Positions 3,246 to 60,521 of a stretch of 64,000 nucleotides of DNA are shown here, one piece after another. Numbering within the stretch: the stretch's first letter is position 1; the number at the start of each line of letters is the position of its first letter. Origin of the DNA: Candidatus Moraniibacteriota bacterium (lineage in GTDB: Bacteria > Patescibacteriota > Minisyncoccia > Moranbacterales > UBA2206); contig JBAQNP010000020.1 of NCBI GenBank assembly GCA_049303905.1, positions 5,584 through 69,583 on the forward strand. The letters run 5' to 3'. Position numbers and translations under genes: made by a program. The notes beneath the pieces are model-generated. The model made no database searches. It saw only the letters and a program-made list of their open reading frames with translations, and was not told where the DNA came from.

Positions 3246-3296
3246 GAAGATTGTTATTAAAAATTAAAAAATAACTCGAAAGCGTATTTTAATAAT

Positions 3297-3340
3297 CAGA
3301 AATTTTCCCTCAATCGACGGCGGATAAGGAAAATTTCTGA
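3297..3340 (+). repeat. Copy 2 of the hairpin motif: 11-bp stem agaaattttcc/ggaaaatttct with 19-nt loop ctcaatcgacggcggataa
   Basis: Perfect inverted repeat around the conserved loop. Itself enclosed by a 19-bp long-range inverted repeat (3246-3265 / 3373-3391). Confidence 0.55.
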
Positions 3341-3414
3341 ATAAAATACACTTTCTCAAACAGGATTTTTTAAATTTTAATAACAATCTTCTTGTAAGTA
3401 TAGATAGAAAAAGT

Positions 3415-4590
3415 ATGTTTGAGATAATTTCAAAAAATCCCGCCTCGACTCGCGGAGACGGTCACTCGTCGATGCGAGGCGGGAGCAATAGTCGAGTTGG
3501 AAAAATTAGACTTAAAAACGGAGAAGTTAACACTCCGTTTTTTATGCCTGATGCGACGCGTGGTTTTGTGCGATCAATTGACAATGAAATTTTAAATTCC
3601 ATAGGTCTCGAAGCGATTCTCATTAACACCTATCATTTGTTTTTAAATCCTGGAATGAAAATAATCAAAGAAGCGGGTGATGCTCATGGCTTTATGAATT
3701 GGTCGCGTCCACTGCTTTCTGATTCGGGTGGATATCAGGTTTTTTCGCTTATTCATAAAAATCCGCGTCTTGGGAAGATTACTGATAATGAGGTGATTTT
3801 TAAATCTCCCCATAGTGGAGAAAAACATATTTTAACACCAGAAATTGCCATTCAAATTCAGTTTGATTTGGGGGTGGACATGATGGTTTGTTTGGATGAT
3901 CCACCACCGAATGATTATTCAAAAGATAAAATTGAAAAAGCAGTTTTGCGGACTATTCGTTGGGCAAAGAGGTGTAAAGATGAATATGAAAAACAAATTC
4001 AAGAAAGAAAAATATCTGAAAAAAATCGACCGTTAATTTTTGGGGTTATTCAGGGCGGGGAATATTTAGATCTTAGAAAACATTGTACCGAGGAACTAGT
4101 GAAAATCGGGTTCGATGGTTATGGTTTTGGAGCGAGACATATCGATGTTGATGGAAATTTCATGGAAGAAGTGGTGCGAGAAACCGCTGGCTTTATCCCA
4201 GAAAATTCATTGCGTTTTGCTTTGGGAGTTGGTACACCGGAGGATATTGTGAAATGTTTTTCATATGGCTGGGATATGTTTGATTGTGTGATTCCTACTA
4301 GAGAAGGGCGACATGGGCGTTTGTTTTTGCGAAAAGGAAAGAGTCTCACTGAATATGAAACAATTAATATTAATAACGGAAAATATAAAAATGATTTTTC
4401 GCGAATTGACGAGAATTGTGATTGTATGTTATGTAAGAATCACACTCGAGCCTATTTGCACCATCTTTTTTCTTCCAAAGAAATGCTTGGGATGAGACTC
4501 TCTGCAATTCATAATTTGAAGTTTTATGTGGATTTACTGGCGTCACTCCGAAATGGCGTAAATTCAAAAAAAATTGAACTCAAACCTTAA
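3415..4590 (+). CDS. tgt: Queuine tRNA-ribosyltransferase
   Basis: 391 aa with the DSGGYQ motif and a C-terminal CDCMLC zinc site. The N-terminus carries a 15-aa insertion encoded by a GC-rich palindrome. Confidence 0.9.
   Translation: MFEIISKNPASTRGDGHSSMRGGSNSRVGKIRLKNGEVNTPFFMPDATRGFVRSIDNEILNSIGLEAILINTYHLFLNPGMKIIKEAGDAHGFMNWSRPLLSDSGGYQVFSLIHKNPRLGKITDNEVIFKSPHSGEKHILTPEIAIQIQFDLGVDMMVCLDDPPPNDYSKDKIEKAVLRTIRWAKRCKDEYEKQIQERKISEKNRPLIFGVIQGGEYLDLRKHCTEELVKIGFDGYGFGARHIDVDGNFMEEVVRETAGFIPENSLRFALGVGTPEDIVKCFSYGWDMFDCVIPTREGRHGRLFLRKGKSLTEYETININNGKYKNDFSRIDENCDCMLCKNHTRAYLHHLFSSKEMLGMRLSAIHNLKFYVDLLASLRNGVNSKKIELKP
3439..3483 (+). repeat. GC-rich palindromic element family 1, 45 nt, in-frame inside tgt (encodes PASTRGDGHSSMRGG)
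   Basis: cccgcctcgactcgcggagacggtcactcgtcgatgcgaggcggg has terminal inverted repeats cccgcctcg/cgaggcggg. It is the reverse-orientation match of the copies at 37026, 29539 and 62138. Confidence 0.75.
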
Positions 4591-4595
4591 ATTTT

Positions 4596-4650
4596 CTTGC
4601 CAAAATTTTTTTGACAAGCAACGGCGGAACAAAATAATTTTGGAGAAAAT
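4596..4650 (+). repeat. Copy 4 of the hairpin motif (ttgccaaaatttttttgacaagcaacggcggaacaaaataattttgg) between tgt and the U32 peptidase gene
   Basis: Conserved ACGGCGG core between inverted AAAATTTT arms. Also reads as TTGACA-17-ATAATT, a sigma70-like promoter. Confidence 0.5.
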
Positions 4651-4712
4651 TTAGGTTTTCAAACAGTAATTTTTCTCGAATTTACGCCATTTCTCCGTTT
4701 TATAAAAAAATA

Positions 4713-8239: not shown

Positions 8240-8863
8240 ATGAAAAATAAAAAAACTATACCAAAACAAAAATCACTTTCAATTATTCCGGACGAAAGAA
8301 TTGTAGGAAAAATATATCTGATTCGAGGAGAAAAGGTGATGTTTGATCGTGATTTAGCGGAGCTTTATGAAGTGGAAACAAAAGCATTGAACAGAGCGGT
8401 TAAAAGAAATATAAAAAGATTCCCAGCTGATTTTATGTTTCAGTTGGATAAAAATGAATCTGAAATATTTTCAAGGTACCATTCTGGCACCTTGAAAGAG
8501 GATGCTAACTTGAAGTCACAAATTGTGACTTCAAGAGATGACAAAAACTTGAGGTACCAAATTGGCACTTCAAGGTCACAAATTGTGACCTTGAAGAAAG
8601 GGCAGAATATAAAGTATCGCCCTTATGTTTTTACCGAACAAGGTGTAGCCATGCTGTCAGCTGTTTTGAAGAGTGAGAGAGCAATTGAAGTAAGCATCCA
8701 AATTGTTCGAGTTTTTATAAAAATGAAAAAATTATTGACTACTCATAAAGAACTGCGAGAAAAAATTGAGAAAATGGAAAAATCGAACAAAGAAAATTTC
8801 ACCCCGTTAGAAATTTTTAAAAATAAATATTATGAAATGGTGGTACATTTATGTTTTGCTTAG
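8240..8863 (+). CDS. ORF6N (KilA-N-like) domain protein
   Basis: 207 aa. N-terminus IRGEKVMFDRDLAELYEVETKALNRAVKRNIKRFPADFMFQL is the canonical ORF6N signature, and the C-terminal YVFTEQGVAMLSAVLKSERAIEVSIQIVRVF is conserved. Has an internal duplicated SQIVT segment. Confidence 0.75.
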   Translation: MKNKKTIPKQKSLSIIPDERIVGKIYLIRGEKVMFDRDLAELYEVETKALNRAVKRNIKRFPADFMFQLDKNESEIFSRYHSGTLKEDANLKSQIVTSRDDKNLRYQIGTSRSQIVTLKKGQNIKYRPYVFTEQGVAMLSAVLKSERAIEVSIQIVRVFIKMKKLLTTHKELREKIEKMEKSNKENFTPLEIFKNKYYEMVVHLCFA

Positions 8864-15711: not shown

Positions 15712-15720
15712 TGGGTGAAA

Positions 15721-15861
15721 CTTATTCAATTAAATATGCCGAACGCGCTTCGGCGCGGAAGCATTCTAGTGATAAAAAGTCTCGACATGCTTGTAATAAA
15801 TAATCTATGTGAATAATTTTTAAGCGCCTCCGTAAGCTCTCGACATATTTAATTGAATAAG
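15721..15861 (+). repeat. MITE-like element A: 141 bp bounded by perfect 17-bp terminal inverted repeats CTTATTCAATTAAATAT/ATATTTAATTGAATAAG
   Basis: Interior carries the hairpin cgcgcttcggcgcg and the block ttaagcgcctccgtaagctctcgacat, shared with element B at 32655-32807. Confidence 0.7.
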
Positions 15862-15920
15862 TTCCAGATAAAAAATAAACCTCAGTGGTTTATTTTTTAA
15901 TTTTAGTGTAAAATAATAGT

Positions 15921-16862
15921 ATGAATTGGATAGGTATTGCTATTATTGCATATTTTCTTTTGGCACTGGAAATTGTTCTGGACAAATTTTTGCTTTCTTC
16001 CAAGCGCGTTTCTCATCCTGCTATCTATGCTTTCTATTCTGGAACGATGGGGATGTTTGTAATTCTTCTAATTCCTTTTGGTTTTCATTGGATAGGTTTA
16101 TCCAAAATTATCTTGAGTTTTATCGCAGGAATCGTTTTCATTTACGGGATGCTTTCCCTTTTTTGGGCAATTAAAAGAGGAGAGGCGAGTCGAGTACTCC
16201 CTATTGTGGGCGCGGTTGTGCCGATTGTATCCTTTTTTCTAGCTATAATTTTTCTGGGAGAAAATTTAGGTCTCAGAGGTATTCTTGGTATCAGTGCTTT
16301 GATTTTTGGTGGAATATTAATTTCTTTTAATTTAGCTAAGAATAGAGCAAGAATATTTTTTGAGGGTTTTCGTGCTTCAATTTTAGCTGGATTTCTTTTA
16401 GCTGTTTCAACAATTATTATCAAAGCACTTTATAATGAAGACAGTTTTATAAATGTTTTTGTCTGGACAAGAACAGGCGCATTTTTGGGAGTATTGAGTT
16501 TTTTCTTGATTCCTATTTGGCGAAAACCAATTTTAGAGTCGCTATTAAAATTTAAAAAATCTGAAAAAGAAGAAAAAAAATCTGGCGCTTCTTTTGTTCT
16601 AGCTAAAACACTCGGCGGAAGCGGATCATTTCTCAAAGAAAATGCAGTGTCAACATCCTTGGCAAGTGTGACCGTAGTGAATGCCTTGGTCTCAGTAGAG
16701 TATGTTTTTATTTTTATTTTGAGTATTATCTTCTCTGCCTGGATGCCAAAAATAATGCGAGAAGAAAAAGATTTTAAGATAATAGTTCAAAAAATTATAG
16801 CTATTGCTATTATTACTCTCGGATTAATTTTAGTTTCTTCACCCTATGGAGTACGGGCATAG
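15921..16862 (+). CDS. Integral membrane protein, DMT/EamA-like transporter fold
   Basis: 313 aa, about 10 predicted TM helices, two-half organisation. Confidence 0.6.
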   Translation: MNWIGIAIIAYFLLALEIVLDKFLLSSKRVSHPAIYAFYSGTMGMFVILLIPFGFHWIGLSKIILSFIAGIVFIYGMLSLFWAIKRGEASRVLPIVGAVVPIVSFFLAIIFLGENLGLRGILGISALIFGGILISFNLAKNRARIFFEGFRASILAGFLLAVSTIIIKALYNEDSFINVFVWTRTGAFLGVLSFFLIPIWRKPILESLLKFKKSEKEEKKSGASFVLAKTLGGSGSFLKENAVSTSLASVTVVNALVSVEYVFIFILSIIFSAWMPKIMREEKDFKIIVQKIIAIAIITLGLILVSSPYGVRA

Positions 16863-16917
16863 TGATAAATAAGAATTTAAATTAGATTTATTTTTTTAAC
16901 ATTAACTGTGGTTTATC

Positions 16918-17967
16918 GTGAAATTACTCCATGGGGTAAAGTCCTTAAATATGAAATATATAAAAAAATTTTTAAGAATTCTTGGTAAAACAGTCGTGAT
17001 TATTTTTGTTGTGATTCTAGGTTTTTTTGTTTATTTTAATATTCCTGTGAGCGATCAAAATGATCGGGCGAAATTGGGCGTAACTTTTTCTAGTCGTTAT
17101 GCGACAAATATTGGGTTGGATTGGAAAGAAGCCTATCTGGCAATGTTGGATGATCTGGAAGTGAGAAGTGTGCGGTTGCCGGTTTATTGGGATTTAGTGG
17201 AAAAAAAGGAAGGTAATTTTGATTTTTCTGAAGTGGACTGGCAACTGGAGGAAGCGCAAAAAAGAAATGTAGATGTTATTTTGACAATTGGACAAAAAGT
17301 TCCGCGTTGGCCAGAATGTGCTATTCCGGATTGGGCGATGACCAGTGATCAAAAAAGAAAAGACTCTCTTTTGAATTTTATTTCAGTGGTGATGGAGCGG
17401 TATAAAAATAATCCGGAGATAAAATATTGGCAAATTGAAAATGAACCATTTTTGCTTTTTGGCATTTGTCCGGCGCCGGATGCAGATTTGCTTGACAGCG
17501 AAATTTCACTGGCTCGAAAAATTGATGATAGTCGGAAAATAATTGTTTCAGATAGTGGAGAATTGAGTTTGTGGGTGCGAGCAGCCAGAAGAGCGGATGT
17601 TTTTGGCACGACGATGTATCGCAATGTTTATAAAGAAGGTTGGGGTTATTATTCCTATCCAATCGGACCACGCTTCTTTCGTTTCAAATACGGTCTTATT
17701 AGTCTTTTCGCGGAACAAAAAAATGCCATTGTGGCGGAACTGCAAGCTGAACCGTGGATTGCCGGTTGGACAGTGGATGCAACACTCGAAGAACAATTCA
17801 AATCAATGAATGAGGAAAAATTGAGAGGGAATGTGACTTATGCTCGGCAAGTTGGTTTTCCGGAAATTTATCTGTGGGGTGTGGAATGGTGGTATTGGCT
17901 GAAAGTAGAAAAAAATTATCCGGCAGTTTGGGATACCGCTAGAGAATTATTCAATGAAGTTAAATAA
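16918..17967 (+). CDS. Membrane-anchored glycoside hydrolase, TIM-barrel, GH5-like clan
   Basis: N-terminal TM. WQIENEP catalytic-acid motif and RLPVYW region. The ATG at 16951 (MKYIKK) is a more likely start than the GTG at 16918. Confidence 0.65.
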   Translation: MKLLHGVKSLNMKYIKKFLRILGKTVVIIFVVILGFFVYFNIPVSDQNDRAKLGVTFSSRYATNIGLDWKEAYLAMLDDLEVRSVRLPVYWDLVEKKEGNFDFSEVDWQLEEAQKRNVDVILTIGQKVPRWPECAIPDWAMTSDQKRKDSLLNFISVVMERYKNNPEIKYWQIENEPFLLFGICPAPDADLLDSEISLARKIDDSRKIIVSDSGELSLWVRAARRADVFGTTMYRNVYKEGWGYYSYPIGPRFFRFKYGLISLFAEQKNAIVAELQAEPWIAGWTVDATLEEQFKSMNEEKLRGNVTYARQVGFPEIYLWGVEWWYWLKVEKNYPAVWDTARELFNEVK

Positions 17968-23818: not shown

Positions 23819-23906
23819 TATTATTTACGAAAATACGAATTTAGCGAAAGTACGAATAAAATTCAAAAAGGATTAGTAATTTCGTTCGATTCGTATTTTC
23901 GTAAAT

Positions 23907-26371: not shown

Positions 26372-27724
26372 ATGAAATTCGCATTGTTCGTATCGCTTAT
26401 GCGTATTGCAATTTTTACTAATAACTATTTACCTAATCCCTATGGCGTGACGCGGTCGATTGAAACATTTCGACGCGAGATGGAAAAACAGGGGAATGAG
26501 GTCTTTATTTTTGCTCCGTACTGGAAAAATTATAAGGATGTCAATAAAAATGTTTTTCGTTTTCCTTCATTTGATATTGAAATTAAATTTCGCTTTCCTT
26601 TGGCGATTCCATATTCCTGGAAAATTGATAAGATAATAAAGAATCTTGATCTGGATGTGATTCATGCTCAGCATCCCAATCTTCTTGGAAGCGTGGCAAT
26701 GAAATGGGCGAAGAGGAAAAAGATTCCCTTGATTTTTACTTGGCACACTCTTTATGATCAATATACTAATTTTGTGCCGTTTGTCCCAGCAAAAATTTCG
26801 GCCGGATATATTATCAAAAAAGCGGTTAAATTTGCTAACTTGGCGGACGCCGTAATTGTGCCGACAGATTCAATCATTCCAATTATTCGAAAATGGGGGG
26901 TGAAAAATTGTCATCCTGAATTTACCTTGCCTACCGGCAGGCAGGTTTCAGGATCTAAAAAAGAGATGCTGAAACAAGTTCAGCATGACAGAATATATGC
27001 TATCCCGACAGGAGTTCTTGAGGAAGAATTTGAAAATCCTGATAGAAATAAAATAAGAAAAAAATATAATATAAAAGATGATGAAACTGTTCTGTTTATG
27101 GTTTCCCGATTAACTGCGGAAAAAAATGTTGAATTTATTTTTCGATCAATTAAGAATATTCTAGCGGACAGTCCGCTAGAGGGCGGACTGTCCGCGCTTA
27201 ATGTTAAATTTCTAGTTGTAGGAGATGGGTATCTCAGGAATAATTTAGAAGAATATTGCCGACGGGAAAATATTTCAGAAAAAATAATTTTTTGCGGAGA
27301 AGTAGAAAGGCAAGAAATTAAAAATTATTTTGCTTCTGCGGATATTTTTGTCTATGGCTCAAAATCAGAAACGCAAGGAATGATAATCACCGAGGCGATG
27401 TATATGGGGCTCCCAATCGTGGCAGTTTCGGCGACCGGGATAAATAGTTTAGTTTTGAATAATGGCAATGGATTTTTAGTAGAAGAAAATTCACCCTGTG
27501 GAATACCGCTACGCGGTAGCGACAAAGTCGCTATTCCACAGGGCGAGAAAGAATTTGAAAAAGCAGTTTTTAAATTGATTAACGACAAAGATTTACGAAA
27601 AAAATTTGGCGAAACTTCCGCGCGTATCGCTAGAATTAATTTCACCTCTTCGATTTGCGCCGAGAAAATTTTGAAAGTTTATAATAACCTTATTGAAAGT
27701 AAAAAAAGACATTATTCTAGATGA
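26372..27724 (+). CDS. Glycosyltransferase family 4 (GT-B, group 1)
   Basis: The C-terminal domain has GSKSETQGMIITEAMYMGLPIVA (the EX7E region). The true start is probably MRIAIF at 26399, because the first 9 codons lie inside a gcgaat-repeat array. The CDS holds three different palindromic insertions (26909-26990, 27160-27196, 27493-27545). Confidence 0.8.
   Translation: MKFALFVSLMRIAIFTNNYLPNPYGVTRSIETFRREMEKQGNEVFIFAPYWKNYKDVNKNVFRFPSFDIEIKFRFPLAIPYSWKIDKIIKNLDLDVIHAQHPNLLGSVAMKWAKRKKIPLIFTWHTLYDQYTNFVPFVPAKISAGYIIKKAVKFANLADAVIVPTDSIIPIIRKWGVKNCHPEFTLPTGRQVSGSKKEMLKQVQHDRIYAIPTGVLEEEFENPDRNKIRKKYNIKDDETVLFMVSRLTAEKNVEFIFRSIKNILADSPLEGGLSALNVKFLVVGDGYLRNNLEEYCRRENISEKIIFCGEVERQEIKNYFASADIFVYGSKSETQGMIITEAMYMGLPIVAVSATGINSLVLNNGNGFLVEENSPCGIPLRGSDKVAIPQGEKEFEKAVFKLINDKDLRKKFGETSARIARINFTSSICAEKILKVYNNLIESKKRHYSR
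26909..26990 (+). repeat. Double-hairpin element family 2 copy, in-frame inside the GT4 gene (encodes CHPEFTLPTGRQVSGSKKEMLKQVQHD)
   Basis: tgtcatcctgaattt...ttcaggatc...gagatgctgaaacaagttcagcatgaca. The same element is intergenic at 31308, 40896 and 53703. This copy also carries an inner ccggcaggcagg palindrome. Confidence 0.7.
27160..27196 (+). repeat. GC-rich perfect 13-bp hairpin (gcggacagtccgc-tagagg-gcggactgtccgc) in-frame in the GT4 gene
   Basis: Seen directly. Encodes LADSPLEGGLSAL. Confidence 0.6.
27493..27545 (+). repeat. Composite palindrome ccctgtggaata...tattccacaggg (family 5) in-frame in the GT4 gene
   Basis: 12-bp terminal inverted repeats enclose two inner palindromes (gctacgcggtagc, agcgacaaagtcgct). 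The same terminal repeat bounds a 94-nt region upstream of glmS. Confidence 0.6.
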
Positions 27725-32654: not shown

Positions 32655-32807
32655 GAGGACTTGCATATTTAAAAATACTGAACGCGCTACGGCGCGAAAA
32701 ATATTTTTAAAAATAAAGTCCCGACATATTCGTAAAGATTAAATTAATGCTAGAATTTCTTAAGCGCCTCCGTAAGCTCTCAATATTTTTAAATATACAA
32801 GTCCTAA
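32655..32807 (+). repeat. MITE-like element B, about 153 bp, terminal inverted repeats AGGACTTGcATATTTAAAAATA / TATTTTTAAATATACAAGTCCT
   Basis: Interior matches element A (gaacgcgctacggcgcg..., aaagtcccgacat, ttaagcgcctccgtaagctctcaat). Confidence 0.7.
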
Positions 32808-40895: not shown

Positions 40896-40964
40896 TGTCA
40901 TCCTGAACTTGTTTCAGGATCTCCGAAACTAAGTACGAGATTCCGAAACAAGTTCGGAATGACA
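40896..40964 (+). repeat. Double-hairpin element family 2 copy (variant) downstream of atpH
   Basis: tgtcatcctgaacttgtttcaggatc...gattccgaaacaagttcggaatgaca. Hairpin B arms have changed (ccgaa instead of gctgaa) but the inverted repeat is preserved. Confidence 0.65.
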
Positions 40965-41279: not shown

Positions 41280-41475
41280 ATTCTTCACCTCCTTTATAAA
41301 AAAGTTTTAAGGTTATTGAGATGATTACATTGAATCAAATCGTATAAATATAGTATGAAATTAATAAAAAGTCAAATTTTTACTAACATACGAATCTTTC
41401 TAAAATACTAATTCGTACTTTCGCTAGATTCGTACTTTCGTAAATTATAATCTAACTAAAATTTATAAAAACATT

Positions 41476-47169: not shown

Positions 47170-49608
47170 ATGGAAAAATACGAACCTAAAGAAATCGAGC
47201 CTAAATGGCAAAAAAAGTGGGCAGAAAACCCGGATAATTTTAGCGCTAAAAATGACTCTGACAAGGAAAAAGCCTTTATATTAGACATGTTTCCCTATCC
47301 GTCAGGGGCGGGGCTACACGTGGGGCATGTGGAAAGCTATACGGCGACGGACATATATTCTCGCTATCTTCGAATGAATGGGAAAAATGTGCTTCATCCG
47401 CAGGGTTTTGACGCTTTTGGTCTTCCAGCGGAAAATTATGCGATAAAGACGGGAATTCATCCAAAAGAAACAATTTCCAACGCGGTAGAAGTTTTCAAGC
47501 GTCAAATTGATTCACTTGGTTTTTCTTATGATTGGTCGCGCGAAGTTAATTCATCAGTACCTGAATATTATAAATGGACACAGTGGTTGTTTCTTTTGTT
47601 TTATAAAAATGGTTTGGCGTACAAGAAAAAAGCCAAGGTGAATTGGTGTCCAAAATGTCAAACGGTTCTGGCAAATGAGCAGGCGGAAAATGGCAAATGC
47701 GAAAGATGCGAATCGGAAGTTATTCAAAAAGATCTCGAGCAATGGTTTTTCAAAATTACTGATTTCATTGAAGACAAAGGAAAAACTTCTGGGCTATTAA
47801 ACGGCTTAGAAAAAATTGATTGGCCAAATTCAACAAAGCTTTTGCAAAAAAATTGGATTGGAAAATCAGAGGGCGCAGAAGTTTATTTTAAATTTGAGAA
47901 TAGCGATGAAGTGGTTTCTGTTTATACTACTCGAGTGGACACTATTTTTTCTTGTACTTATATAATTCTAGCTCCTGAGCTTGAGCTAGTTGAAAAAATA
48001 ACAACAAAAGAACAAAAAGAGGAAGTTGATGCATATATTAAACAAGCTAATTCCAAAACTGATTTAGAGCGAACTGGAACACAAAAAAATAAAACTGGAG
48101 TTTTCACGGGAGCCTTTGTTATTAATCCAGCTACAAATGAAAAAATTCCTGTTTGGATTTCTGATTTTGTTTTGGCTGGATATGGAACTGGTTCTGTTTT
48201 TGCTGATGCTCATGATGAAAGAGATTTCGAAATGGCAAAAAAATATAATATTCCACTTAAAGTTTCTATTAAGCCAGCGGACGAAAGTTTATGGGAAAAA
48301 GTAAAAAATCTTGAAGAGTGTTATCCGGATGATGGCGTCCTAGTAAATTCCGAGCAATTTGATGGCTTGACTTCATCTGAAGCAAGAGCCGAAATTACAA
48401 AATGGCTAGAAGAAAATAATTCAGGTAAAAGAGCGATAAAATATAAACTTCGAGATTGGCTAGTTAGCCGACAAAGATATTGGGGCGCGCCTATTCCAAT
48501 TATATATTGTGAAAAATGCGGTGAGGTGCCAGTGCCAGAAATTGATTTGCCAGTTGAATTGCCGGATGATGTGGATTTCAAACCGACCGGGGAATCTCCT
48601 CTAAAATATTCCAAAAAATTTCAAGAAGTGAAATGTCCAAAATGTGGAGGGGAAGCAAGAAGAGAATCGGACACGATGGACACTTTTGTTTGCTCTAGCT
48701 GGTACTATTTACGCTACGCTGACCCAAAAAATGAAAAAGAATTTGCTTCCAAAGAAAAACTGGAAAAATGGCTTCCGGTGGATCTTTATGTCGGCGGAGC
48801 GGAGCACAGTGTGCTTCATCTTCTTTACGCCCGATTTTTCACGAAAGTTTTGCATAATTTGGGGTACCTAAATTTCGATGAACCATTTTTGAAACTGCGT
48901 CACCAAGGAACAATTCTGGCGGAAGACGGAACGAAAATGTCAAAATCAAAAGGCAATGTGGTCAATCCGGATGATGTTGTGAAAGAATTTGGCGCGGATG
49001 CTCTTCGATTTTTTGAAATGTTTATGGGGCCTTTGGAAGATATGAAGCCGTGGCAGACAAAAGGTATTGTGGGAGTGAGGAGATTTTTGGAAAAAATATG
49101 GAAAATTCAGTATAAAGTATCAAGTATAAAGTATCAGGTATCAAATAAAAAGCTAGAATCCCTGATGCATAAAACAATTAAAAAGGTTAGTGGGGATATT
49201 GAAGAAATGAAATTTAATACTGCAATAAGTCAATTAATGATTTTGGCTAATGTTTTTGATAAAGAAGATGAAATAAACTTAATACATTATACTTTATACT
49301 TACTACTGCTTAGTCCTTTCGCACCGCATCTAGCTGAAGAACTCTGGGAAAAATTAGGGCACAATGAGTCGATATTTTTGCAAAAATGGCCTGTGTATGA
49401 TCCGGAAATGATTAAGGACGAAGAAATAGAACTTATTATTCAAATCAATGGAAAAGTGCGCGATAAGATAACTGTGAATGCAGATATTTCAGAAGACGAA
49501 GCAAAAATGATTGTGCTTGAAAGAGAAAAAGTTAAGATTCATATCGCAGAAAAAGAGATAAAAAAAATTATATTTGTTAAGGGGAGATTAATAAACATAG
49601 TAGTTTGA
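47170..49608 (+). CDS. leuS: Leucine--tRNA ligase
   Basis: HVGHVESYTATD (HIGH motif), KMSKSKGN motif, 812 aa. Contains an in-frame heptamer repeat block (agtataa/agtatca) at about 49100-49140. Confidence 0.95.
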   Translation: MEKYEPKEIEPKWQKKWAENPDNFSAKNDSDKEKAFILDMFPYPSGAGLHVGHVESYTATDIYSRYLRMNGKNVLHPQGFDAFGLPAENYAIKTGIHPKETISNAVEVFKRQIDSLGFSYDWSREVNSSVPEYYKWTQWLFLLFYKNGLAYKKKAKVNWCPKCQTVLANEQAENGKCERCESEVIQKDLEQWFFKITDFIEDKGKTSGLLNGLEKIDWPNSTKLLQKNWIGKSEGAEVYFKFENSDEVVSVYTTRVDTIFSCTYIILAPELELVEKITTKEQKEEVDAYIKQANSKTDLERTGTQKNKTGVFTGAFVINPATNEKIPVWISDFVLAGYGTGSVFADAHDERDFEMAKKYNIPLKVSIKPADESLWEKVKNLEECYPDDGVLVNSEQFDGLTSSEARAEITKWLEENNSGKRAIKYKLRDWLVSRQRYWGAPIPIIYCEKCGEVPVPEIDLPVELPDDVDFKPTGESPLKYSKKFQEVKCPKCGGEARRESDTMDTFVCSSWYYLRYADPKNEKEFASKEKLEKWLPVDLYVGGAEHSVLHLLYARFFTKVLHNLGYLNFDEPFLKLRHQGTILAEDGTKMSKSKGNVVNPDDVVKEFGADALRFFEMFMGPLEDMKPWQTKGIVGVRRFLEKIWKIQYKVSSIKYQVSNKKLESLMHKTIKKVSGDIEEMKFNTAISQLMILANVFDKEDEINLIHYTLYLLLLSPFAPHLAEELWEKLGHNESIFLQKWPVYDPEMIKDEEIELIIQINGKVRDKITVNADISEDEAKMIVLEREKVKIHIAEKEIKKIIFVKGRLINIVV

Positions 49609-49719
49609 ATCATTTTAACATCCTAGCATTTTAACATATTAGCATCGCTAAAGTAGCATTATTTGATAAAATGCTAAAATGTTAATATGTTAATATGTTA
49701 ATATGTTAAATGAACTTTT

Positions 49720-50404: not shown

Positions 50405-51745
50405 ATGAAATTATTTGGTACTGATGGAATTCGAGCTTTGGTAAATGAAGAAATGATGAGTCCGGAAATGGGAGTTAAAATGGGAATAGCTCTGGTTTCA
50501 TATTGTCAAAAAAGAAATGCGCCATTGAAAATTGTCATTGGGCGAGACACACGAGAGTCGGGCGTGATGTTGGAAGAAGCGATTGTTTGTGGAATAATTT
50601 CTATGGGTGGGACGGCGGTTTTGGCTGGAATAATTCCAACTCCTGGTGTGGCATATTTAGTCGGCGAACAAAAAGCTGGGGCGGGGATAGTAATTTCTGC
50701 TTCACATAATTCTTTTGAATATAATGGACTAAAGCCTTTCAATGCTGACGGCACAAAACTTAATGATGAACAAGAATTGGAGTTGCAAAAATATATCCTA
50801 GAAGGAGTGACAAAAAAAACAGGAAAGGATTTTGTTTTGGGGCAAAAAACAGTTTTGCCTGATGCTAAAGAAAAATATACTAATTTTCTCCTAAACAAAG
50901 TTTCTAATTTAGAATTGGTAAGCTTAAAAATAGTTTTGGATTGCGCTAATGGAGCGACTTTTGAAACGGCTCCGATGGTATTTGAAAAAAAAGCCAGTGA
51001 AGTGGAAATTTTTTTTGCCAGTCCAAATGGGAAAAATATTAACAGTGATTGCGGTTCTCAGCACGTTGAAGCGCTCAAGAAAAAAGTTTTGGAAAAAAAA
51101 GCTGATCTTGGATTGGCTTTCGATGGTGATGGAGACAGACTAATTGTAGTTGACGAAAAAGGTAATGTGCTAAATGGCGATCAGATAATTTATATTATCG
51201 CTAAGATGATGCATGAAAAAGGAGAATTGAAAAATGAGGCCGTTGTTACGACAGTTATGAGTAATATTGGGTTTATTAGTAGTTTGAAAAAAATTGGAAT
51301 CAAACATTTTGTGGTTGGCGTGGGCGATCGGCAAGTGTCTCAGGAGATGAAAAAAAGAGAGATTGTTCTTGGCGGGGAAGAATCTGGCCATATTATTATG
51401 TCTAATTTTCAACCAACAGGCGACGGAATGGCTTCGGGATTGATGTTGATTTCGGCTATTAATTATTTCAAGAAAAATTTGTCAGAATTAGTTCGTGAGA
51501 TAACACTGTTTCCAAAAATTTTGGTCAATGTTTCGGTGAAAAAAAAGCCAGAATTAGAAACCATTCCAGAAATTATGGAGATTATAAAAAAAATTGAAAA
51601 TATCTTAGGAGAGAACGGACGCGTGCTTGTGAGATATTCTGGTACGGAAAGTTTGTGTCGAGTTATGATTGAAGGCAGAGACAAAGAAGAAATTAAAAAT
51701 TATGCCGATCAAATAGTGGAAATTATAAATAATTATTTGGGCTGA
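50405..51745 (+). CDS. glmM: Phosphoglucosamine mutase
   Basis: MKLFGTDGIRALVNEEM and the SASHNSFEYNGLK active-site Ser loop. Confidence 0.9.
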   Translation: MKLFGTDGIRALVNEEMMSPEMGVKMGIALVSYCQKRNAPLKIVIGRDTRESGVMLEEAIVCGIISMGGTAVLAGIIPTPGVAYLVGEQKAGAGIVISASHNSFEYNGLKPFNADGTKLNDEQELELQKYILEGVTKKTGKDFVLGQKTVLPDAKEKYTNFLLNKVSNLELVSLKIVLDCANGATFETAPMVFEKKASEVEIFFASPNGKNINSDCGSQHVEALKKKVLEKKADLGLAFDGDGDRLIVVDEKGNVLNGDQIIYIIAKMMHEKGELKNEAVVTTVMSNIGFISSLKKIGIKHFVVGVGDRQVSQEMKKREIVLGGEESGHIIMSNFQPTGDGMASGLMLISAINYFKKNLSELVREITLFPKILVNVSVKKKPELETIPEIMEIIKKIENILGENGRVLVRYSGTESLCRVMIEGRDKEEIKNYADQIVEIINNYLG

Positions 51746-51856
51746 AAATTCACCCCAGTGGAATACGGACTTATAAAATAATCAAAATTAAATTAAATTT
51801 ATTTTTTAATATCGCTTCGGGTTTAATATATTATTATTCCACGGGGTAAAAATATT

Positions 51857-53695
51857 ATGTGTGGAATAATTGCTTATATTGGAAAACAAAAAGCGGTGCC
51901 AATTCTTCTGGAAGGACTAAAGCAACTTGAATATCGAGGCTATGATAGCGCTGGAATTTCTGTTATTCAAAATGAGAAAATAACTACCATAAAAGCGGTA
52001 GGAAAAGTGGTGGAATTGCAAAATAAAATTGGTAGCCTAGAATTTATTGGAAATATTGGTATTGCTCATACGCGGTGGGCAACACATGGGAAGCCAAGCG
52101 ATGTGAATTCTCATCCGCATGGAGATTGTCAGGGAAATATTTTTTTGGTGCATAATGGGATAATTGAAAATTATCAAGAACTTAAAAAATTGCTTCAAAA
52201 GAAAAAACATAAATTTGTTTCAGAAACCGACTCGGAAGTTTTGGCGCATCTCATTGAAGAATTTAATAAGAAGTTTGATTTTAAAAAATCTGTTTTGGAA
52301 GCTTTGAAACTTATTCGTGGAACTTATGGTTTAGCGATAATTTCTGCGCGAGAGCCGGACAAAATAATTATCGCTAGAAATGGTTCACCCTTGATACTTG
52401 GAATTGGCAAAGATGAATTTATTGTAGCATCCGACGCCAGCGCCATTGTGCGCCACACTGACAAAGTGATTTATTTGGATGATGGAGAAATGGCCGAGAT
52501 TAGTGCGGATGATTTTGAAATTAGCAATATTAAAAACAAGGTCGTGAGCAAGGAAATTTCTAAATTAAATTGGACATTAGAGGAGTCAAAAAAAGGTGGA
52601 TTCTCGCACTTTATGCTCAAAGAAATTTTCGAACAACCAGAGGTGATTGCAAACGGTCTGCGTGGCAGAGTAGAGCATTTCTTGTCGGAAGATAATTTTC
52701 CGATTCTTGGTGGACTTCGTCCGATAGAAAAAAGACTTCGGCGTATCAAAAAAATTATCATCGTCGCTTGTGGTACTTCATATTATTCCGGATTAGTCGG
52801 AGAATATATGCTCGAAGAATATGCCGGAATTCCAACGGAAGTGGAATATGCCTCTGAGTTTCGCTATCGGAAACCAATTTTAGATTCTTCAACAGCTGTT
52901 GTGGCAATTTCTCAATCAGGTGAAACAGCCGATACATTGGCGGCCATTCGTGAAGCTAAAAACAAAGGAGCGCTGACACTGGGAATTGTGAATGTGGTTG
53001 GTTCAACCATTGCACGCGAAACAGATGCAGGAACTCACACACTATCTGGTCCGGAAATTGGGGTAGCTTCAACCAAGGCTTTCACTACGCAACTTGTAGT
53101 TTTGGCGCTGTGGACAATGATGCTTGGGCGACAAAGAGACATGTCAAATGTGATGAATAAACGAATTGCAATGGAGCTAAAAAATATGCCAAAAATCATT
53201 GAAGGAATTTTAAAAAAATCTAAGGAGATAAAAAAGATTGCTAAAAAATATTCGAGCGCTAAAGATTTTTTGTATCTAGGTAGAAAATATAATTTTCCGA
53301 TTGCACTTGAAGGAGCGCTAAAGATAAAAGAAATTTCCTATGTGCACGCTGAAGGCTATGCGACAGGAGAAATGAAACACGGTCCAATTGCACTAATTGA
53401 CGAAAACTTCCCTTCAATTTTCATTTGCCCGAAAGACAGTGTCTATGAAAAAAATATTTCTGGCATGCAAGAAATCAAAGCGCGTGGTGGAAAAATAATT
53501 GCCATTGCTACGATGGGCGACAAAGAAATTGCGCGCATTGCCGACGACGTAATTTATATTCCAAAAACTTTGGAAATGCTTACGCCCTTTATTTCAGTTA
53601 TTCCTTTGCAACTCTTTGCCTATTATTTTGGCGTGGCCAAAGGTTATGATGTGGACAAGCCAAGGAATTTAGCTAAGAGTGTGACGGTAGAATAA
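51857..53695 (+). CDS. glmS: Glutamine--fructose-6-phosphate aminotransferase
   Basis: MCGIIAYIG Ntn start and two SIS domains. Confidence 0.95.
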   Translation: MCGIIAYIGKQKAVPILLEGLKQLEYRGYDSAGISVIQNEKITTIKAVGKVVELQNKIGSLEFIGNIGIAHTRWATHGKPSDVNSHPHGDCQGNIFLVHNGIIENYQELKKLLQKKKHKFVSETDSEVLAHLIEEFNKKFDFKKSVLEALKLIRGTYGLAIISAREPDKIIIARNGSPLILGIGKDEFIVASDASAIVRHTDKVIYLDDGEMAEISADDFEISNIKNKVVSKEISKLNWTLEESKKGGFSHFMLKEIFEQPEVIANGLRGRVEHFLSEDNFPILGGLRPIEKRLRRIKKIIIVACGTSYYSGLVGEYMLEEYAGIPTEVEYASEFRYRKPILDSSTAVVAISQSGETADTLAAIREAKNKGALTLGIVNVVGSTIARETDAGTHTLSGPEIGVASTKAFTTQLVVLALWTMMLGRQRDMSNVMNKRIAMELKNMPKIIEGILKKSKEIKKIAKKYSSAKDFLYLGRKYNFPIALEGALKIKEISYVHAEGYATGEMKHGPIALIDENFPSIFICPKDSVYEKNISGMQEIKARGGKIIAIATMGDKEIARIADDVIYIPKTLEMLTPFISVIPLQLFAYYFGVAKGYDVDKPRNLAKSVTVE

Positions 53696-58686: not shown

Positions 58687-60369
58687 TCATAAATTTTTCA
58701 CCATATAGCTATCTTTCAACTTATATCCTAATTTTCGATAATATCCACGCACGCCGACGCCTGAAATTACTACAATTTTATCAAGACGGAATTCTTTTTT
58801 GGCTATTTTTTCAGCCTCTAGGATTAGTTTTTTTCCAAGGCCGATGTGTTGAGGAGAGAGCGTATCTTTTTGATTGATCTGATTCATTTTGCCATAAGTA
58901 TGTACTTCCCTTATTATGGCAGAATTTTTCAGAACATTCGGGACTATACTTTTTTCGTTATTTATTCTTAGGCGTAAAAGCGCAAAAAGTTTAGACCTCA
59001 CCCCAGCCCTCTCCTTATTAAGGAGAGGGAGCGTTGAATACTCCAGGAATATTTCTTGGCCATCGCTAGCAGGATAATCAATACGATTTAGAATTATTTT
59101 TTCTTTGAGATTATAATCCGAACGAACTTCGCGACAACGAATGCAAGGACAGGTGGATTTTTTGGCAATTAGTTGGCGAAGATTAGAAATCTTTGGTCCG
59201 GCGATGATGGAACTTTCTGGCACATCGCGCACTAGGCGAGAGATGCGAACATAAGGTGGAATGATTTCATTTTTGACACGCAGGATAAATTTTTCAAAAC
59301 TTTTGTCGGTGAGGGCTTTATATTTTCCAGCTTTCCATATTTTATACAGTGGACTTTGACGGATAACGACAGTCGGATAAATCTTGAGCATATCTGGTTG
59401 GAAAGAGGAACTACTAAAAAGTTCTTGAAACATTTGAAAATCTTTTTTGATGCTAGAGCCAAGTAGCCCTGGCATAATATGATAGTTAATTTTGAAACCA
59501 AAATCTTTGAGCAGTTTTGTAGCTGTGACAGTTTTTTGAACGTTGTGTCCGCGTTTATTTTTTTCTAATACATCATTAAAAATACTTTGCACGCCAAGTT
59601 CAACTCGAGTGCATCCAAGATTTCTAAAATTAATTAGTTCCTCTACATTGATATAATCCGGTCGCGTTTCTAGTGTTAGCCCAACTATTCTATGCTTAGC
59701 CGTCTCATTCTTCCTTTGCTCTGTTTTTAAATTTTTTTCGGTTTTGTTATATGTTTCATGTTTCATGTTGCATGACTTAGGGTAGTCATTGCAAGCCCGA
59801 AAACAGTCTAAGATAAATTTATTCTGGTAGGCTTTTGGCAAATAGGAAAAGGTTCCGCCCATTACGATTAATTCAATCTTGTCAGTTTTGTGACCATTAA
59901 GTTCGAGAGCGTGAATTCTTCTTTGTACTTGAAGATAGGGATCAAACTTTGCGGAAATGGCGCGCATCACAGCTGGTTCATTTGAAAGATAGCTTTTAGG
60001 CATTTCTTTTTCGGTGGGGCAATAGATGCATTTTCCTGGACAAGGATAACTTTTAGTAAGCACTGCCACCACGGCTACACCAGAATCAGTGCGAATTTTT
60101 TTGCTAAAAAGACAATTTTCTAAATCCGGATTACGTTTGATTTTTTTCTCGAGAATCATTTTTTCATAAAGTTCGCGAATATCAGCATTGGTTGGAAGGG
60201 GTAATCCCAGCTCCTTGCAAATCTCTTTTTTCCGTTTCAAAAAAAGCGCAGGACTGGAAATCTTGGTTTGGGTTGCTAGTTTTATGAAATTGTCATAGGA
60301 TTTAAGCATGGGGGTGGGGTGGGTGAATTTAATTTTTGTAATTTGGAAAAAATAAACTTGAACGCGCAT
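58687..60369 (-). CDS. Elp3-like radical SAM + GNAT protein (tRNA wobble-uridine modification family)
   Basis: CPGKCIYCPTEKEM radical-SAM cluster region and a C-terminal GNAT domain. The likely true start is the internal MLKSYDNF at 60309. Contains an MKHET insertion (59741-59777). Confidence 0.8.
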   Translation of the reverse strand: MRVQVYFFQITKIKFTHPTPMLKSYDNFIKLATQTKISSPALFLKRKKEICKELGLPLPTNADIRELYEKMILEKKIKRNPDLENCLFSKKIRTDSGVAVVAVLTKSYPCPGKCIYCPTEKEMPKSYLSNEPAVMRAISAKFDPYLQVQRRIHALELNGHKTDKIELIVMGGTFSYLPKAYQNKFILDCFRACNDYPKSCNMKHETYNKTEKNLKTEQRKNETAKHRIVGLTLETRPDYINVEELINFRNLGCTRVELGVQSIFNDVLEKNKRGHNVQKTVTATKLLKDFGFKINYHIMPGLLGSSIKKDFQMFQELFSSSSFQPDMLKIYPTVVIRQSPLYKIWKAGKYKALTDKSFEKFILRVKNEIIPPYVRISRLVRDVPESSIIAGPKISNLRQLIAKKSTCPCIRCREVRSDYNLKEKIILNRIDYPASDGQEIFLEYSTLPLLNKERAGVRSKLFALLRLRINNEKSIVPNVLKNSAIIREVHTYGKMNQINQKDTLSPQHIGLGKKLILEAEKIAKKEFRLDKIVVISGVGVRGYYRKLGYKLKDSYMVKNL

Positions 60370-60374
60370 TTTTT

Positions 60375-60415
60375 TGCTAAAATTTTTCTAAGTCAACGGC
60401 TGGTACGAAAAATTT
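60375..60415 (+). repeat. Copy 5 of the hairpin motif (gctaaaatttttctaagtcaacggctggtacgaaaaattttag) in the divergent promoter region
   Basis: 11-bp stem ctaaaattttt/aaaaattttag around a loop containing TCAACGGCTGG. Confidence 0.55.
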
Positions 60416-60521
60416 TAGAAAAAATCCGCATTCTTCGAACAACAATTTTTTCCAAATTACAAAAATTAAATTAACAATAGAGAGGGAGAGGAGAAAATTT
60501 TAATCATTCAATTTATTTATT

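Follow-up and report, generated by a model that had tools for sequence, protein, structure and literature searches.

An inverted repeat upstream of glmS and its three copies

In a 64,000-nt stretch of a Candidatus Moraniibacteriota genome (contig JBAQNP010000020.1; hereafter the window; G+C content 36.6%), the glmS gene (51857-53695) is preceded by a spacer whose two ends form an inverted repeat, and the same repeat recurs inside a gene for a GT4 glycosyltransferase. Proteins encoded in the window have their matches in Candidatus Moranbacteria, a lineage of the candidate phyla radiation/Patescibacteria; its GlmS is identical to a 612-aa protein (P0121) from a Moraniibacteriota metagenome-assembled genome. 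We find that the repeat at glmS very probably forms the termini of a copy (B) of a small palindromic insertion element, mobile and without coding capacity, which at glmS is a lineage-specific passenger. One such element is present in the window in three copies, A (27491-27544), B (51750-51847) and C (16839-16937). The features to which we refer are as follows.

16839..16937, + strand: element copy C, 99 nt, between an EamA-like gene and the next gene
27491..27544, + strand: element copy A, 54 nt, in-frame in the GT4 glycosyltransferase gene, where it encodes SPCGIPLRGSDKVAIPQG
27506..27533, + strand: interior of A, with two mini-hairpins (CCGC-TAC-GCGG and TAGCGAC-AAA-GTCGCTA)
51750..51847, + strand: element copy B, 98 nt, filling the glmM-glmS spacer, with ends that correspond to the family consensus
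51752..51765, + strand: left arm of B, ACCCCAGTGGAATA, one base more than the consensus ACCCNGTGGAATA
51766..51834, + strand: interior of B, 69 nt, AT-rich, homologous to the interior of C
51835..51847, + strand: right arm of B, TATTCCACGGGGT
51861..51870, + strand: glmS codons 2-5, GTGGAATAAT, a copy of the arm core and a possible rival of the left arm in pairing with the right arm of B

The first-pass annotation of this DNA had reported the two pairs of inverted repeats, and both exist. At glmS the arms lie where that annotation had put them (CCCCAGTGGAATA at 51753-51765 and TATTCCACGGGG at 51835-51846); in the GT4 gene the pair is equally real (CCCTGTGGAATA at 27494-27505 and TATTCCACAGGG at 27532-27543), the limits of 27493-27545 given for it being off by 1-2 nt. 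The sequence shared by the two sites is longer than was reported, as GAAAATTCACCC stands directly 5' of the left arm in both A and B. Copy B is flanked by ...GAAAAT^ on the left and by ^AAAAATATT-ATG(glmS) on the right (^ marks the junction with the element), and copy A by AAT^ and ^GAGAAA.

The annotation had also described the two pairs as bounding two different interiors. This needs a qualifier, because the interior of B is homologous throughout to that of C, and these two copies can be aligned from end to end. The arms of C are ACCCTATGGAGTA and TACTCCATGGGGT; they differ from those of B at two positions, and both differences are compensated in the partner arm (GTGGAATA/TATTCCAC versus ATGGAGTA/TACTCCAT). 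The left arm of C also provides the final codons and the stop codon of the upstream gene. Copy A is a short form of the element, with a 26-nt G+C-rich interior whose two mini-hairpins sit atop the stem formed by the arms. Relative to shuffled sequences, the z-score of the predicted fold is -6.95 for A and -4.0 for C. B folds no better than shuffled sequences (z = -0.24), because its interior is almost pure A+T.

We scanned the window for the full architecture of the element (the terminal foot, an 8-nt arm, the complementary arm within 40-140 nt and the foot again, in relaxed form), and found exactly three elements, against 0.02 expected from shuffles. The octamer GTGGAATA alone gave 15 matches against 1.8 expected, most of the extra ones being intragenic, and one of them coincides with codons 2-4 of glmS (ATG TGT GGA ATA = MCGI). 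By itself the octamer is thus weak evidence, because its excess is largely due to codon usage, codons 2-4 of glmS included.

Filled and empty sites in relatives

Comparison with close relatives shows that the element is or was mobile, copies having entered some orthologous sites and being missing from others. The GT4 protein of the window is 450 aa long, against 381-420 aa in its 120 best homologues. The 18 residues SPCGIPLRGSDKVAIPQG were found only in this protein and in one homologue, P0001, and are missing from 15 of the 16 aligned orthologues. In DNA, the empty site ...AAT|GAG... is seen in five orthologous loci (L200-L204), and copy A is exactly 54 nt between AAT and GAG, with no repeated flank. 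Filled and empty GT4 sites, when compared, thus leave room for a target duplication of one T at most; a second site, TAT|AAA in a DegT-like gene (see below), shows the same. Between the window and the contig that encodes P0001 (L001), copy A is identical at 52 of 54 nt, while the GT4 gene outside the copy is 78% identical (61% at third codon positions).

The loci fetched through the GT4 orthologues are also syntenic with the window around copy C. In L200 and L201 (Moranbacteria UBA2206) C is present at the same junction and is ~91% identical, similar to its flanks, and in L202, L203 and L204 the site is empty, the two genes lying 6-21 nt apart. Copy B occupies the same site in L207 (9893-9994; GlmS 94% identical). 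It is missing from L205 and L206 (GlmS 95% identical), in which an Nramp gene stands between glmM and glmS and the spacer is 33 nt, and from L208-L210 (GlmS 90-91% identical), in which the upstream gene overlaps glmS; nor was it found upstream of glmS in 80 metagenomic glmS loci (GlmS at most 73% identical). Excision of B in silico leaves AAAT + AAAAATATT, a glmM-glmS operon spacer of 13 nt. Since the pattern of presence differs among the same relatives, A, B and C arose by separate events.

The earlier suggestion of a small mobile cassette with conserved ends is therefore borne out by filled and empty orthologous sites for all three copies, and a search for further copies of the repeat yielded both C in the window and the same ends at 118 loci or more elsewhere, in many phyla.

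Anatomy, target and orientation of the element

In the strict sense, the element is T(C/T)ACCC...GGG(T/C); the preceding T and the following RAA are part of the target. It consists of two unpaired 5' bases, T(C/T), an arm ACCC-N-GTGGAATA, an interior that is free in both sequence and length (~20-70 nt), and the complementary arm, which ends in GGG(T/C). Whole elements measure 54-100 nt and their arms 13-16 nt. The inner eight bases of the arm vary by subfamily (GTGTAATA, GTGAAATA, GTTAGATA, GTTAAATA, GTGCAGTA or ATGGAGTA), and the partner is always the exact complement. The position that separates ACCC from the inner arm is variable; here we counted C-G 31 times, T-A 27 times, C.A ten times and T.G eight times. 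Pairing is kept without preference for either strand, an argument against selection acting on one RNA strand.

The ends are asymmetric: TTCACCC is found on one side and GGGTAAA, GGGCAAG or GGGCAGG on the other, and the combination TTTA/TTTA was never seen. The filled and empty pairs explain this asymmetry, because they reveal the flanking T and RAA to be target sequence (AAT^GAG in the GT4 gene, TAT^AAA in the DegT-like gene). The base at position -1 is T in 104 of 117 distinct sites; a purine occupies +1 in 101 of them, and A occupies +2 in 91 and +3 in 92, with no preferred base beyond. The interiors are mostly unstructured (median z = -0.3). Two tight internal hairpins, which differ in sequence between copies, are typical only of copies from the candidate phyla radiation (CPR); a universal three-way-junction structure was rejected for these reasons.

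The TCACCC end is 5' on the sense strand in 16 of 18 copies that lie in open reading frames (ORFs) and in 16 of 24 copies between co-directional genes, which makes 32 sense against 10 antisense in total (binomial p ~0.001 by our arithmetic). By context, the intergenic copies divide into 24 co-directional, 9 convergent and 5 divergent.

Copies inside protein-coding genes

In-frame copies are present in genes for GT4, LepA (in two Moranbacteria), UvrB, IleRS and DegT-like aminotransferases. The elements in ORFs are 54-66 nt long, and the only conserved residues are those encoded by the arms (SPCGI...IPQG, HPVEY...FHRV, LPxGI...IPxG). Copies with a length that is a multiple of three survive in essential genes as extra loops. 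Two DegT-like genes that are 42% identical, one from a WOR-3 metagenome-assembled genome (MAG; L078, 2995-3125, two tandem copies) and one from a Cloacimonadota MAG (L097, 1499-1561, one copy), have the insertion between the same two codons (...SEY^K/E...), and in the homologues from L018 and L023 this site is empty (TAY|AAA). The common junction indicates target specificity; an exchange of gene segments is also possible.

The GT4 gene of the window holds two further in-frame insertions that are absent from most orthologues (26909-26992 and 27170-27199). The first, CHPEF..SGSKKEMLKQVQHDR, belongs to the TGTCATCCTGAA...TTCAGSATGACA family of palindromes, which has another member at 40896-40964, and a second small palindrome, ACCTTGCCTACCGGCAGGCAGGT, is nested within the insertion; the other, SPLEGGLSAL, is also present in P0003 and P0019. 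Because the GT4 gene carries these further insertions, it appears that several unrelated palindrome families insert in-frame in this lineage.

Distribution of the family across bacteria

We scanned one genome per species (GTDB) with the pattern CACCC-N(1-2)-GTGGAATA-N(20-50)-TATTCCAC and obtained at least 118 loci, against ~17 by chance according to our arithmetic. Most of these matches are real, because N+GGG, which the pattern leaves unspecified, follows the right arm in 105 of the 128 matches listed; a few of those without GGG, for example in L015, L022, L037 and L048, look like chance. All host genomes of the scanned loci are MAGs. Among the matches listed, the CPR hosts are Moranbacteria, Paceibacteria, Woesebacteria, Saccharibacteria, Vogelbacteria and Gracilibacteria, and the other hosts include Bacteroidota families, Ignavibacteria/Melioribacter, Cloacimonadota, WOR-3, Stahlbacteria and Binatia, as well as Deltaproteobacteria/Desulfobacteraceae, Desulfobacterota, Bdellovibrionales, Thermotogae, Neomarinimicrobiota, Verrucomicrobiae, Bipolaricaulota and others. 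Elements from a dozen or more phyla share these 13-16 nt ends.

Single genomes can hold many loci (at least 16 in Bacteroidetes FK3.bin67, at least nine in one Melioribacter MAG and at least six in one Cloacimonadota MAG). Within one genome the interiors are near-identical, and copies are frequent at contig ends; in Binatia and Deltaproteobacteria adjacent or abutting copies form clusters. Carriage of the element by phages was rejected, as 2.9 million viral contigs gave no match. No Rfam family matched in 18 loci carrying copies, and a literature search with the arm sequences and keywords found no description of this repeat family, its coverage being incomplete and an earlier description possible.

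In one subfamily (L004-L118; Bacteroidetes FK3.bin67, Melioribacter and related MAGs) the core is flanked on both sides by tandem 9-nt ACRCRGATN units, and the repeat unit is ~110 nt. A copy with an interior of the Melioribacter/Bacteroidetes type lies on a 2.8-kb contig labelled as a Methanosarcinales archaeon (L021), which is probably a mis-binned bacterial contig and not an archaeal copy.

The leader of glmS

The first-pass annotation saw no glmS ribozyme in this leader, and we agree: cmscan at the gathering threshold matched neither RF00234 nor any other Rfam family in the whole window. At E<=10, the region 51650-51950 gave only two chance-level matches to miRNAs, and the two sites of the originally reported repeats gave nothing relevant.

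The annotation had further proposed that the repeat could sequester the translation-initiation region of glmS in a long-range stem. The right arm (AUUAUUCCAC, 51833-51842) does have two complementary partners, the left arm and glmS codons 2-5 (GUGGAAUAAU, 51861-51870), with predicted energies for the isolated helices of -14.5 kcal/mol (arm to arm) and -9.7 kcal/mol (arm to start region). The hairpin with the start region has a probability of ~0.83 in the ensemble predicted for a 141-nt segment, and is present in the minimum free energy and centroid structures of a 161-nt segment; removal of the element in silico lowers the predicted probability that the initiation region is paired from 0.62 to 0.33. 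These predictions would suit a dedicated cis-regulatory leader, in which the right arm switches between the left arm and codons 2-5 upon a signal, opening or closing the initiation region and replacing the ribozyme or a control of the GlmY/GlmZ type. We consider such a leader very improbable. The element is missing upstream of glmS from relatives with 90-95% identical GlmS and from the 80 further loci, and the same element occurs in unrelated contexts, including ORFs. In L207, the one other genome found with the element at this site, codon 2 is TGC instead of TGT, and this synonymous change is enough to revert the predicted pairing to arm-to-arm. Folding of the leader region gives no stem more stable than those of shuffled sequence, none of the z-scores (-0.24 for B, -1.5 for the 161-nt segment and -0.65 for L207) being significantly beyond shuffles. 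The identity of the arm core with glmS codons 2-4, on which the switch would depend, is explained by the universal MCGI N-terminus, which dictates this octamer in an AT-rich genome.

Sequestration of a Shine-Dalgarno sequence by the GGGG of the right arm is not credible, because almost no gene in the window has a recognisable Shine-Dalgarno sequence, upstream regions being A+T-rich. A promoter-like sequence in the interior of B (TTAATA-17-TATTAT, 51806-51834) was also rejected as a promoter, as the equivalent position in C fails the consensus and such sites are no more frequent than expected by chance. The proposal that the leader is built to sequester the initiation region of glmS thus finds no support, given the absence of B from close relatives, the fold z-scores, the scarcity of Shine-Dalgarno sites and the flip of the structure in L207. 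We see no sign of a conserved glmS switch, and B is a selfish repeat, not a conserved regulator; an incidental effect of B on glmS translation in this genome is possible, judging from the predicted folds.

Comparison with known repeats

In kind, the element is a small palindromic repeat of the repetitive extragenic palindrome (REP), Rickettsia palindromic element (RPE) or miniature inverted-repeat transposable element (MITE) type. It is set apart from them by the lack of a GTAG/CGTC tag, by insertion without duplication, by the fact that no parent insertion sequence (IS) was found, by a size much below that of RPEs and, above all, by ends that recur in a dozen or more phyla.

REPs have a GTAG or CGTC tag, occur in several phyla and lie in co-directional or convergent spacers (PMC3733652). 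Similarly to REP, BIME and REPIN sequences, the element is a short palindrome whose hairpin has a few conserved unpaired bases at one end. As in those repeats, genomes contain many copies, most of them downstream of a gene and between co-directional or convergent neighbours, some clustered or intragenic, and insertion makes no target duplication. However, its tag is T(C/T) + ACCC, within the foot (T)T(C/T)ACCC, rather than GTAG/CGTC, and its units of 54-100 nt with a free interior contrast with the 20-40 nt of REPs. As a rule, a REP family is confined to one species or genus, whereas the ends of this element are common to a dozen or more phyla; no RAYT gene was found beside the copies in 119 loci.

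RPEs are selfish palindromes that are found in-frame in unrelated, often essential genes, where they are tolerated as peptide loops (PMC10969869). The element is likewise found in-frame in protein-coding genes (GT4, LepA, UvrB, IleRS, DegT-like). RPEs, however, are ~100-150 bp long, occur in Rickettsia only and have a conserved peptide in each family; the element is two to three times shorter in ORFs (54-66 nt) and its hosts are many phyla, not Rickettsia.

Elements of the Correia (CREE/NEMIS), ERIC and RUP type can affect the expression of genes by way of promoters or of hairpins sensitive to RNase III (PMC10969869). The element shares with bacterial MITEs that it is non-coding, small, multi-copy and intergenic, has terminal inverted repeats and often lies just upstream of genes. 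Classical MITEs, in contrast, derive from a DDE IS with the same terminal inverted repeats and generate target duplications (TA for Correia), whereas the insertion of A is clean, without a duplication of more than 1 nt, and no parent IS was found in 8 kb around 119 loci. With IS200/IS605 and their miniature derivatives (PATEs) the element has in common the absence of target duplication, the dependence on hairpins, insertion at a short motif (T^RAA) and the orientation bias; those elements, however, lack terminal inverted repeats and have separate left-end and right-end hairpins, while the ends of the element form a near-perfect inverted repeat. Likeness to the glmS ribozyme (RF00234) and to GlmY/GlmZ control is limited to the location in the 5' region of glmS, there being no Rfam match and no conservation of the leader in relatives. 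An integron attC site was considered and rejected: the ends miss the R'' RYYYAAC ... R' GTTRRRY consensus, and the copies are solitary, in housekeeping operons and inside ORFs, rather than in arrays between promoterless cassettes.

Possible mechanism of mobilization

Movement of the copies would have depended on an enzyme acting in trans, with the conserved foot and the hairpin as its recognition signals. Among candidate enzymes, a cut-and-paste DDE transposase is unlikely, because insertion is clean and without duplication, which also argues against a classical MITE. A mechanism that works on single strands and requires hairpins, as in REP/RAYT or IS200/IS605, would fit, given the absence of duplication and the orientation bias. 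Other traits recall the biology of these systems as well, namely the conserved unpaired foot beneath a hairpin, arms for which pairing alone matters, and the short fixed target. At glmS, copy B entered an operon spacer of formerly 13 nt, any effect on the translation of glmS being a by-product.

We looked for the enzyme around the copies. A search for arm pairs 150-4500 nt apart and for clusters of flanking ORFs returned nothing recurrent, and no arm pair enclosed a transposase gene. All ORFs of the 119 loci were also searched for Y1/HUH enzymes by phmmer, with IS200 TnpA, IS608 TnpA and E. coli RayT as queries (approximate sequences); a TnpA (Y1) homologue was found in one of the 119 loci, ~1 kb from a copy. 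Genes in the flanks include toxin-antitoxin genes, GxxExxY (PD-(D/E)XK), GIY-YIG and an ISL3-type transposase, and the toxin-antitoxin, GxxExxY and GIY-YIG neighbours are typical of 'junk' spacers. GIY-YIG or GxxExxY nuclease genes are interrupted by copies or abut them in L101 (3523-3800), L108 (2430-2710), L079 and L030 (3540-3900), with no consistent arrangement; in L101, an ORF of 82 aa for a GIY-YIG protein lies between a left-arm-like and a right-arm-like sequence.

Alternative explanations

Several observations weigh against a mobile insertion element. No autonomous partner or recurrent transposase lies within 8 kb of the 119 loci, so the mechanism is one that we only infer, and the phmmer matches are confined to two of these loci (a weak RayT-like match in L041 and TnpA in L082), neither of which adjoins a copy. 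The junctions come from comparisons between species, and a duplication of 1 nt, the T, is possible. The orientation counts include related copies from the same genome, which are not independent, and rest on crude ORF calls. As the hosts are all MAGs, some taxonomic labels may be wrong, and the figure of at least 118 loci is a lower bound. Finally, copy A is far better conserved across two species than its host gene (52/54 nt versus 78%), which could reflect function, a recent independent insertion or gene conversion.

The conservation of A and its strong structure (z = -6.95) are also what one would expect if the family were primarily a functional structured RNA or DNA site that selection maintains wherever it occurs, for instance a REP-like hairpin that stabilises mRNA or is processed by RNase III. 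Compensatory changes that uphold the complementarity of the arms point in the same direction, as do the sense bias and the preference for co-directional and convergent spacers, which is known for REPs (PMC3733652). We nevertheless regard this explanation, which is not exclusive of mobility, as improbable. The sites are polymorphic between close relatives, copy C diverges between two species at about the rate of its flanks (by our count), and most interiors are unstructured (median z = -0.3). G.U and C.A intermediates are equally frequent, with no single strand favoured, and copies are found inside the coding regions of LepA, UvrB, IleRS, GT4 and DegT-like proteins, where a processing site would be harmful. 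A chance likeness of two unrelated palindromes with the same 12-nt ends in an AT-rich genome could appeal to the octamer GTGGAATA, which is over-represented through codon usage (15 matches); this explanation, to which we assign almost no probability, is already refuted by the architecture scan of the window (three elements against 0.02 expected) and by the family scan, in which a flanking consensus left unspecified is conserved at more than 100 loci elsewhere. A mobile insertion element accordingly remains our preferred explanation of the repeat at glmS.

Beyond the glmS locus, the family may, as a tentative and rather doubtful generalization, represent an undescribed pan-bacterial class of miniature insertion elements. 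Such a class would be characterized by the fixed foot T(C/T)ACCC...GGGT, covarying arms, insertion at T/RAA without duplication, use of the same codon junction across phyla, and mobilization by an enzyme not yet linked to such repeats, possibly a widely conserved host enzyme or single-strand DNA enzyme.

Other repeats in the window

The window contains further repeats. Three intergenic hairpins of ~145-153 nt (3246-3391, 4550-4693 and 60323-60475) have near-perfect outer arms of 26-31 nt that are wholly different between copies, and share the unpaired motifs AACTYRAA, CRACGGCKG (apical) and TTCTCAAACAG; they have no Rfam match at the gathering threshold, and seem to form a family of structured repeats whose stems covary. 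Another group of long hairpins between genes (15716-15866 and 32656-32805) has GAACGCGCTwCGGCGCG, AAAGTCyCGACAT and TTAAGCGCCTCCGTAAGCTCTC between variable outer arms of 26-27 nt. A 133-nt intergenic hairpin at 1013-1145 (z = -4.4) has a CCACCC...GGGTGG foot like that of the element, its arms and interior being unrelated.

Palindromes of the TACGAAAGTACGAA type (23823-23906 and 41379-41444) are located beside the tmRNA gene and upstream of the ATP synthase genes. TTAACAT/TAGCAT repeats are present at 49611-49710, and also upstream of glmS in a relative (L122). Inside ORFs lie GTATAAAGTATCAAG repeats (49108-49308, in ORF 47170-49608) and CTTGAAGTCACAAATTGTGACTTCAAG palindromes (8459-8606, in ORF 8240-8863).

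Implications

As an explanation of the glmS leader, the element is ordinary; as a family, it deserves a proper census. The apparent 94-nt leader of glmS is the interior of an inserted repeat, and should not be annotated as a riboswitch-like element. The in-frame inserts in GT4, LepA, UvrB, IleRS and DegT-like proteins inflate protein length and can confuse the homology-based annotation and the structure prediction of proteins from MAGs, and the element also breaks assemblies, many copies being located at contig ends. With ends so strict and insertion so clean, the element is a convenient system in which to look for the enzyme, and the occurrence of the same ends over many phyla points to a very widespread mobilization machinery that is not tied to a repeat family. 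If the pan-bacterial class is real, it would be a general source of protein loop insertions in CPR and other uncultivated bacteria.

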